From an uncultured Candidatus Saccharibacteria bacterium (lineage in GTDB: Bacteria; Patescibacteriota; Minisyncoccia; Phycocordibacterales; XYD1-FULL-46-19), in the NCBI GenBank assembly GCA_964539475.1, contig CAZIIR010000001.1, forward strand, positions 2,869-66,868: 64,000 nucleotides of DNA, in the 5' to 3' direction. Shown here piece after piece: positions 1,047-1,370 of the stretch. The stretch's first letter is position 1; every line of letters begins with the position of its first letter. The notes beneath the pieces are model-generated. The model was not told the DNA's origin. It did not search any database and saw only the letters and a list, made by a program, of their open reading frames with translations. Both the position numbers and the translations under genes were made by a program.

Positions 1047-1075
1047 TTGACAATACTACTCCTGTGTAGTATAAT
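1047..1075 (+). promoter_or_regulatory. sigma70-type promoter, perfect consensus TTGACA-N17-TATAAT
   Basis: Exact -35 and -10 hexamers with 17-nt spacing, read directly from the sequence. Confidence 0.55.
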
Positions 1076-1169
1076 AAGACCTTGCTCTAAGTAACTGTGA
1101 TTACTAAATGAGCAATTCACAAAAAACCTTAACTGGAGGATAACAATATGCGTTAGTAATATAAATATT

Positions 1170-1213
1170 AGCCTGTGCTATGTTGGGAGACGTAGCACAG
1201 GCTTCTTATCATT
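1170..1213 (+). terminator. 11-bp stem hairpin with a weak U-tract (terminator or processing hairpin)
   Basis: agcctgtgcta / tagcacaggct inverted repeat, followed by TCTTATCATT. Confidence 0.35.
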
Positions 1214-1325
1214 CAGTTCAATACATAGCATCGAGGAGGCGTTTTCTCTGTTAGAATTTATAAGGATTAGAGGATTACATACCCTTAACGTCAGTGACCT
1301 GGACTATGTATTGAACTGAGTGATG
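1207..1325 (+). promoter_or_regulatory. long-range ~21-bp helix enclosing ~75 nt in the 5' leader of gene 1371..1589. It is a candidate RNase III processing site or structured regulatory RNA
   Basis: cagttcaatacatag at 1214-1228 pairs perfectly with ctatgtattgaactg at 1304-1318, and the helix extends to about 21 bp including G-U pairs. Confidence 0.35.
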
Positions 1326-1370
1326 TGGCGGCGAGTCAATCCGACAATCTTAATTAAAGTATTAACTATC

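Follow-up and report, generated by a model that had tools for sequence, protein, structure and literature searches.

A conserved probable promoter, leader and long-range helix with predicted roles in early-transcript processing in a phage distant from cultured ones

How phages start, attenuate and cut their early transcripts is known mostly from T7, T4 and lambda. The early transcripts of T7-like phages carry sites for RNase III (R0.3, R1.1 and others), an enzyme that also excises the intervening sequences of 23S ribosomal RNA (rRNA), and processing signals shaped like a transfer RNA (tRNA) are known from the stable RNAs of the T4 tRNA region (species 1 and 2), from mitochondrial tRNA punctuation and from MALAT1-mascRNA. 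The bar minigenes of lambda read AUG AUA UAA. Promoter-early stem-loops (PeSLs) of T4-type phages are elements of about 100 bp that are present many times per genome and flank ORFans, and their stem-loop terminates upstream transcription (PMC2839356). YrlA RNAs, which have also been found in phages and some of which are RNase P substrates, hold a tRNA-like domain inside a terminal stem and are recognized by their location beside Ro60/rsr and by a GNCGAAN0-1G motif (PMC4201824). Here we analyze a cassette that lies between position 1047 and the start codon at 1371 of a 64,000-nucleotide (nt) stretch of phage DNA (the window), which comes from the assembly of an uncultured Candidatus Saccharibacteria bacterium (GCA_964539475.1, contig CAZIIR010000001.1, positions 2,869 to 66,868 of the forward strand). 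An initial annotation, made from the letters alone, had described a sigma70 promoter at this place, driving a short structured leader or small RNA (sRNA) that ends in a 21-bp long-range helix, a candidate RNase III site. All the features that it named are found where it placed them, and its interpretation is borne out in part: the promoter, the leader and the notion of processing at the duplex hold up.

The reading that we favor, tentatively and with slightly less than even confidence, is that the cassette joins a conserved early promoter to an attenuated leader or small RNA and to an RNA-processing module, which consists of an RNase III-type duplex and an RNase P-type tRNA mimic. Its basis is sequence features, conservation, the pattern of variation and thermodynamics, from which we infer promoter activity, termination, translation of a mini-open reading frame (mini-ORF) and every cleavage. 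The central argument is that the conserved parts are those that the transcription and RNA-processing machinery would read, whereas what varies freely, in the loop of the duplex as well as in the mimic's anticodon domain, is sequence that it would ignore. Variation was followed across six alleles from short Logan, ENA and JGI contigs, which were retrieved by looking up exact proteins and through homologues of two small proteins encoded nearby: allele A is that of the window and L197, allele B that of L001, allele C that of L212, L213, L215, L216 and L219, allele D that of L214, allele E that of L217 and L218, and allele F that of L223.

The promoter had been given as TTGACA-N17-TATAAT at 1047–1075, and the plus strand reads exactly so, with the -35 hexamer TTGACA at 1047–1052, a 17-nt spacer and the -10 hexamer TATAAT at 1070–1075. 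It agrees with the consensus at 12 of 12 positions with a 17-bp spacer and is the sole 12/12 match of a promoter scan that covered the first 20 kb. That such a match is very unlikely by chance holds for the exact pattern, expected 0.044 times from base composition on both strands of the 64 kb, but not once up to one mismatch is allowed, when 3 matches compare with 1.0 expected. The consensus match alone is thus unusual rather than overwhelming, and what makes it convincing is its conservation in six alleles together with its membership in a recurring motif. The -35 hexamer is identical in all six alleles, and the -10 hexamer differs solely at its fourth base (TATAAT, TATCAT or TATGAT), which is the least important position for sigma70 recognition; the key -10 positions T1, A2 and T6 are invariant, and the spacer shows two substitutions. 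From -35 to -10, 28 of 29 positions in allele D and 27 of 29 in alleles E and F are identical to the window. The spacer region also contains a 7-bp palindrome not mentioned in the initial annotation (ATACTAC, 1053–1059, with GTAGTAT, 1066–1072).

The -10 region, GTAGTATAAT (1066–1075), matches GTAGTATART, a motif that the window contains in five exact copies (1066, 9095 and 24323 on the plus strand, 40487 and 53782 on the minus strand), where 0.64 would be expected. Four of the five precede gene blocks, and the copies at 1066, 9095, 40487 and 53782 are intergenic, lie on the coding strand and have TTGNNN 16–19 nt upstream of TATART. GTAGTATART is probably the main promoter consensus of this phage, used on both strands, and the sequence at 1047–1075 is likely a genuine promoter, with predicted activity. 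The further claim of a sigma70-using host, as opposed to one with Bacteroidetes-type promoters, is not warranted: TTGACA-N16-18-TANNNT is not enriched (2 matches versus 4.2 expected), the Bacteroidetes-type -7 motif TAnnTTTG is depleted (50 versus 80 expected), and a Shine-Dalgarno (SD)-like motif lies upstream of only 10 of the 85 genes of the window. A second promoter of the GTAGTATART family, TTGCAT-19-TATAGT (9066–9104, +; motif copy at 9095), opens the region 9066–9378 (+), in which ACTGAG, a strong terminator (9173–9221; a GC-rich stem of ~14 bp plus TTTTTGTTT, ~75 nt after the promoter) and an enclosing long-range helix (z = -4.1) all come before the next gene. This region is another structured, terminator-containing leader.

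Judged from the position of the -10 hexamer, transcription from 1047–1075 would start near 1082. A stem-loop at this predicted 5' end (1082–1115, +; UUGCUC...GAGCAA around an inner GUAA/UUAC hairpin, from the minimum free energy [MFE] fold and RNAalifold) occurs in every allele; allele F has unrelated sequence instead of the first 60 leader nucleotides and, in the same place, an unrelated stem-loop. Folding of the leader RNA, which the initial annotation had suggested as a check, gave an MFE of -89.1 kcal/mol for 1082–1375 (z = -5.4), and 0 of 200 dinucleotide shuffles were as stable. Within the leader, an SD-like GGAGGA (1135–1140) is followed, after a 7-nt spacer, by the mini-ORF ATG CGT TAG (1148–1156) and an in-frame TAA (1157–1159), so that the element spans 1135–1159 (+). 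The initial annotation missed this arrangement, which is retained as GGRGGA-N7-ATG in six of six alleles despite a differing spacer sequence. The predicted peptides have 2–4 codons (MR, MRY, MKI and MKTV, each followed by a stop). Mini-ORFs of three and four codons share one TAA located 10 nt before the next hairpin, and alleles A to C stop one codon sooner, at TAG, which places the stops 10–13 nt 5' of that hairpin and suggests a coupling to attenuation. Throughout the window, the regions upstream of genes are A/T-rich, and 1135–1140 is the single SD-like site observed that is both strong and conserved; several early genes have the fixed start context ACTATCATG (e.g., 155–166, 663–674, 1362–1373 and 2434–2445).

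The hairpin itself (1170–1203) has 15 pairs, including two G.U pairs, and a GGGA (GNRA) loop; it is followed by TCTTATCATT and, within the feature at 1170–1214 (+), by the U-rich tract TCTTATCATTC. The initial annotation had its position and its weak U tract right and its length, given as 11 bp, too short. In the alignment and with RNAalifold, 12 of the 15 pairs are invariant across the alleles, and one pair is altered on both sides (U.G to A-U, allele E). The bases behind the stem reach the at least 5 T in 8 that the terminator scan asks for, but the tract is not continuous (UCUUAUCAUU); a better one, CTTTTTAT (UUUUUAU), is found in allele B. Taken as a sequence, 1170–1214 resembles a leaky intrinsic terminator or attenuator, and the alleles have in common the short, structured leader that had been proposed, with a terminator-like hairpin at its end.

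A promoter, then structured RNA, then a terminator-like hairpin would also fit a cis-acting antitermination leader of the put or nut type, in which the RNA modifies RNA polymerase so that it passes the hairpin at 1170–1203 and later terminators. The promoter at 9066–9104, with its strong terminator (9173–9221) ~75 nt on and before its gene, would suit such a role, as would UGCUCUAA in the leader, which resembles boxA. However, allele F replaces the first 60 nt including this octamer, Rfam yields no similarity to put or nut, and the long helix and tRNA mimic downstream of the terminator are left unexplained. We therefore consider antitermination very improbable.

Downstream of the hairpin, the 5' arm ATCATTCAGTTCAATACATAG (1208–1228, +) pairs over 21 nt with the 3' arm CTATGTATTGAACTGAGTGAT (1304–1324, +), which contains ACTGAG at 1315–1320. 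The helix of about 21 bp enclosing 75 nt is thus as originally reported, and in a ranked list of inverted repeats within 300 nt it comes first for the entire 64-kb window. The arms are 95% complementary, with a G.U as the sole non-Watson-Crick position, and the helix ends 46 nt before ATG 1371. With 20 Watson-Crick pairs and one G.U (22 pairs by RNAalifold, and the junction described below extends it), the duplex has the length of an RNase III-type substrate, that is, some two turns, or at least 20 bp, of uninterrupted double-stranded RNA (dsRNA). RNAalifold recovered helix and junction independently. The 5' arm is invariant but for two changes that affect one side only and preserve pairing as G.U; hairpin and 5' arm are 93–100% and the 3' arm 94–97% identical to the window, compared with 73–82% (DNA) for neighboring genes.

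The interior (1229–1303, +) consists of a conserved junction and a remainder of variable filler. The junction comprises a CA bulge, covarying pairs between 1231–1232 and 1302–1303 (UA/UG/GC and CG/UA/UG), a G.G mismatch and AGG 1234–1236 paired with CCU 1298–1300; we rejected a kink-turn here because alleles D and E do not retain the G.A pairs. A GGAGG box without an ORF had been noted inside the helix, and it is there (GAGGAGG, 1233–1239), but just its GAGG is conserved in the other alleles. Among the six alleles, the interior takes four unrelated versions of 47–97 nt, none with extra stability relative to shuffles (z = -0.4 to +0.8) and none with a match elsewhere in the phage on either strand, on which ground we also dropped an antisense guide. 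Conserved arms around a replaceable, unstructured interior are the pattern expected if the duplex itself is functional, as for an RNase III site, and judged by this pattern the long helix is conserved and under selection. A Pfam search of 83 ORFs found no RNase III gene in the phage, so a host enzyme would be needed for cleavage. The same search returned no reverse transcriptase, integrase, transposase or Ro60/TROVE. Accordingly, a diversity-generating retroelement or retron was rejected for want of a reverse transcriptase, and because the interiors differ in length and sequence in a manner that is not adenine-specific, and an integron attC site for want of an integrase, and because the arms do not fit the R''/R' consensus. 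A miniature inverted-repeat transposable element would require a target-site duplication, which is absent, and the interiors are not conserved between copies; an invertible segment was discarded because the interiors are not mutual reverse complements.

The helix is not an isolated site: in the sister alleles B, D, E and F, the 3' arm continues directly into a tRNA-like element, overlapping its acceptor stem by 7 nt. This element has an 8-bp acceptor stem, GAGUGAUG/CAUCACUC, and a T arm, GCAGG-UUCAAAU-CCUGU, both identical in these four alleles, as well as a D arm common to D, E and F and a different one in B; its 3' end lies 25–30 nt upstream of the following start codon. In B, D/E and F, 53–91 nt of mutually unrelated sequence take the place of the anticodon domain. 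Hence, what is conserved is what tRNA-processing enzymes recognize, namely, acceptor stem and T arm (four of four carriers) and D arm (three of four). Against the tRNA model of Rfam, which has a gathering score of 29, the element of D and E reaches 33.9 bits, its anticodon arm carrying an insert of 56 nt; this model gave no match for alleles B and F, and ARAGORN, which looks for a cloverleaf that has U33 and an anticodon loop of 7 nt, identifies no tRNA in any of the alleles.

An acceptor stem of at least 7 bp combined with a T arm whose loop reads TTCRAnY is found in B, D, E, F and a second copy of the module (3659–3738), but not in the window allele, where 1318–1344 (+) is a 27-nt remnant. 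Alignment with B, D, E and F identifies in this remnant, which the initial annotation missed, the acceptor 5' strand GAGTGATG, the D-arm start TGGCGG and a decayed T-arm piece, CGAGTCAATCCGA, without the acceptor 3' strand. Alleles A and C both have just GAGTGATG-TGGCGG and the decayed T-arm fragment, and the mimic is absent from the window, L197, L212, L213, L215, L216 and L219. A reading of the same stretch as an N-terminal extension of the 72-amino-acid (aa) gene from ATG 1323 was rejected, since this frame is closed by stops in B, D and E.

From these features, the following course of events can be proposed. Host RNA polymerase would start at ~1082 from a sigma70-type promoter of the GTAGTATART family, and the first ~125 nt would constitute a leader or small RNA made up of the 5' stem-loop, an A-rich unpaired stretch that bears the mini-ORF behind a strong ribosome-binding site, and the hairpin. 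The latter would serve as a leaky terminator or attenuator, at which some transcripts end and others read through. Read-through RNA would then form the 21-bp duplex with its small conserved junction, an RNase III-type substrate in which the arms alone matter, and in the sister strains the 3' arm would overlap the first 7 nt of the tRNA-like element. Cuts at the duplex, and at the tRNA mimic where there is one, would detach the leader, leaving an upstream fragment that ends in a protective hairpin and giving the downstream ORFan mRNA a defined 5' end. The window allele would have lost the tRNA mimic and kept the duplex alone.

The second copy (3548–3739, +), also missed in the initial annotation, repeats the combination of helix and tRNA-like element. 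There, CTCAGTTCAGCACAC (3548–3562) pairs with GTGTGCTGAACTGAG (3647–3661) in a 15-bp helix that encloses 84 nt; its outer CAGTTCA/TGAACTG is the same as in the first copy, and its inner half is different yet complementary. The helix overlaps the tRNA-like element (3659–3738) by 3 nt, a discriminator A follows at 3739, and the next gene begins 17 nt on. The interior of this copy is significantly structured (z = -3.1) and is replaced in L001. Rfam 15 places a tRNA-Sec-like match at 3659–3738 (29.6 bits, below the gathering score of 47) and shows no other match within 900–4000 at E values up to 10, with GOLLD, ROOL, put and riboswitches included. The 64 kb contain a single full cassette and one further copy of the arm core; the additional copies of the promoter motif come without the other parts.

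ACTGAG, found in the 3' arms, is overrepresented in the noncoding DNA of the plus strand: 2.1 kb hold six copies (1315, 2955, 3517, 3656, 7313 and 9131) versus 0.5–0.9 expected, and 0 of 2,000 shuffles reach six. In four of the six, it opens an acceptor-like stem, GAG...CUC-A, and it may be a recognition or cleavage motif. Several of these copies lie in 2752–3757 (+), 1 kb without a credible ORF, which has a G+C content of 0.42 compared with 0.36 in its surroundings and in which inserts that differ between strains separate conserved islands. Conserved are the initial 77 nt, the hairpin motif AGACYGAGCAACCTG...GTGGNGGCTC (at 2953 and again at 3515), a long-range helix of 21 nt (2988–3008 with 3145–3165) and the second copy at 3548–3739. 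Stability in this region is z = -0.9 for the first 610 nt and z = -4.7 for the last 384 nt; no Rfam family (GOLLD and ROOL included) and, by blastn, no INPHARED match was found for it. A 186-nt module at 3362–3547 is extra in the window relative to L001. Farther on, 7240–7445 (+) is a G+C-rich intergenic region of 206 nt with ACTGAGTGCC and a T-loop-like TTCGATTC (z = -0.3; no Rfam match).

Given that GAGUGAU serves both in the outer 7 bp of the helix and in the acceptor stem, and that the two folds are only 0.4–4.2 kcal/mol apart, it is tempting to speculate that helix and tRNA top half form a switchable processing unit, with an overlap of 3–7 nt at the ACUGAG junction and near-isoenergetic folds. 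Cleavage of the duplex would free the acceptor strand, upon which the tRNA mimic would fold and be cut in turn, and the scaffolds might also carry exchangeable inserts with their own function. ACUGAG modules would then represent an undescribed family of phage RNA punctuation. We regard this extension as distinctly unlikely.

Another explanation of replaceable inserts within conserved scaffolds is that the locus encodes two stable noncoding RNAs, namely, an sRNA of ~125 nt with a trans-acting or dual function and a helix-clamped RNA, fused to the tRNA-like scaffold in the sister strains, whose fast-changing insert is functional, e.g., as a decoy for host defence or tRNA-targeting enzymes. The unit from promoter to hairpin is a classic sRNA layout, helix and tRNA-like scaffolds are kept while inserts are swapped, the interior persists at 47–97 nt without collapse and is structured in the second copy, and the phage has a gene of the RNA-repair-type HAD_SAK_2 domain (4613–5023, +; E = 1.5e-18). 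On the other hand, the four interiors and the tRNA-like inserts are no more stable than shuffles and match nothing else in the phage on either strand, the changes between alleles A and C do not preserve interior structure, and alleles without the tRNA mimic are common. This makes stable RNAs an unlikely account.

Several observations weigh against the combination of promoter, attenuated leader and processing module that we favor. The U tract behind the hairpin at 1170–1203 is weak, and as the genes of the phage lack SD sites, the sigma70 consensus and GGAGGA may not be read as they are in E. coli. Within the 21 bp, whose arms are nearly invariant, no double compensatory changes are seen (shuffle control, 168/500, not significant), and covariation is not significant with the junction included, either (45/500). 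Moreover, the outer helix has an A.C mismatch in allele C, and the interior stays at 47–97 nt, although deletion to a short loop would be expected if it were useless. Finally, invariant arms are compatible equally well with a role at the level of DNA.

Such a role would be that of a linker for modular shuffling, similar to PeSLs, with promoter, hairpin and arms conserved as patches of homology and the inverted repeats acting as DNA features. In line with this idea, the strains form mosaics whose breakpoints fall at the conserved pieces, and the genes flanking the cassette vary by allele, with 124, 143, 274, 96 or 105 aa upstream and 72, 79 or 95 aa downstream. The stem-loop between -35 and -10 is likewise a feature of many PeSLs (PMC2839356). 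Yet PeSLs measure ~100 bp and are present many times per genome, whereas the cassette spans 320–440 bp and is found in full once, with its arm core once more; compensatory and G.U-preserving changes and the tRNA-like fold argue for selection at the RNA level; and recombination at conserved pieces follows from any conserved element. A DNA linker as the explanation thus appears improbable to us, even if it is compatible with, and not exclusive of, transcription and processing of the cassette.

Relatives beyond the six alleles were not found in the following searches. A blastn search of 600–2400 against INPHARED phages gave no match, neither flanking protein has IMG/VR homologues, and the upstream KH-domain protein retrieved only itself among 5.8 billion proteins. 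Scanning IMG/VR for TCAGTTCA-N60-120-TGAACTGAG returned ~190 loci, all chance matches and none with the extended helix or T arm; scanning JGI metagenomes for the 5' arm returned 13 chance matches; the hairpin motif and the tRNA-like 3' half retrieved nothing in IMG/VR and GTDB genomes; and a degenerate hairpin-plus-arm pattern retrieved nothing in GTDB genomes. None of these searches gave a clue to host or prophage. The helicase of the phage is ~30% identical to its best phage match, and tblastn of a large structural protein against phages gave no match. Beside the structural genes, 27018–36968 (-) encodes a 3,316-aa ORF without a PHROG match, PHROGs being the sole library scanned for it. Among genes with links to RNA and nucleotide metabolism, to which that with HAD_SAK_2 also belongs, a DHH/DHHA1 phosphoesterase is encoded at 21240–22184 (+), and the ORF at 22946–23635 (+) was rejected as a phage CCA-adding enzyme, its PolyA_pol head-domain match being subthreshold (E = 0.005) and PDB and NCBIfam giving no match.

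Two paralogous Cys-rich proteins of ~102 aa with an EAL..SIRHW...NCALC motif and no Pfam family are encoded at 355–666 and 2443–2751 (+), the first shortly upstream of the cassette, with the KH-domain gene between, and the second directly before the 1-kb noncoding region. Ten independent assemblies (L212 to L221) share one end point to the base, which lies in the AGACCGAGCAACCTG hairpin motif, 284 nt past the Cys-rich gene; this suggests a repeat or a population-variable junction. At the end of the window, ~780 nt (63219–64000) are noncoding and contain purine- or pyrimidine-rich low-complexity runs (GGGTGGGTGGGG and CCTCCCCTCACCTCC); this may be a genome-end or origin region. Similar gene-free stretches of ~1.3 kb lie upstream of the early genes in L197 (135–1517) and L223 (1–1265).

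The interest of the locus is that it presents a compact cassette in a phage very distant from cultured ones, with a pattern of conservation that marks the parts under selection, and that GTAGTATART and ACUGAG provide handles for annotating this uncultured phage group. If the predicted cuts take place, it would be a clean natural case of a bacterial virus whose RNA is punctuated by RNase III and RNase P together and a ready-made modular part comprising promoter, insulator and processing site; if they do not, it would be a strongly conserved, yet ordinary, regulatory leader.

Compared with the described systems, the cassette resembles T7 RNase III sites in placing ~20 bp of dsRNA between genes of what would be a polycistronic early transcript, and in that cleavage would leave a 3' hairpin on the upstream RNA. 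Unlike those sites, which are single hairpins of ~60 nt with an internal loop, its long-range helix closes 47–97 nt, overlaps a tRNA-like element and has no sequence similarity to them. With the intervening sequences of rRNA, it shares a conserved duplex around variable or dispensable sequence. As in other tRNA-like processing signals, a tRNA-shaped element forms part of a longer transcript and closely precedes the next gene, and conservation is confined to the acceptor, T and D features that RNase P, RNase Z and CCA-adding enzymes read; here, however, the anticodon domain is 53–91 nt that are unrelated in each lineage, ARAGORN makes no call, and the window allele has lost the element. The two-codon ORF with a strong SD on a phage early transcript, in our case a predicted one, recalls the lambda bar minigenes, from which it differs in lacking any sequence relation, in having its stop 10–13 nt before a terminator-like hairpin and in belonging to a phage otherwise without SD sites. 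YrlA similarly combines a long stem with a tRNA-like domain (PMC4201824), but in the cassette this domain follows the helix, a different topology, and with no Rfam match to YrlA and no Ro60/TROVE gene among the 83 ORFs, we rejected a Y RNA. Like PeSLs, it unites a strong sigma70-like promoter with stem-loops, one of them between -35 and -10, in a hyperplastic ORFan region with shuffled flanking genes (PMC2839356). It differs from them as a single cassette of 320–440 bp with its main hairpin downstream of the promoter and with a long helix and tRNA mimic in addition, and instead of many ~100-bp copies, the 64 kb hold one full copy and five copies of the promoter motif. Judged by its alignments and predicted folds, this is a real and conserved cassette with predicted regulatory and processing roles, a variant of known phage themes that is not established as a new kind of system, and what is unusual about it is that the helix overlaps the tRNA mimic, that ACUGAG marks a junction and that a mini-ORF precedes the hairpin.

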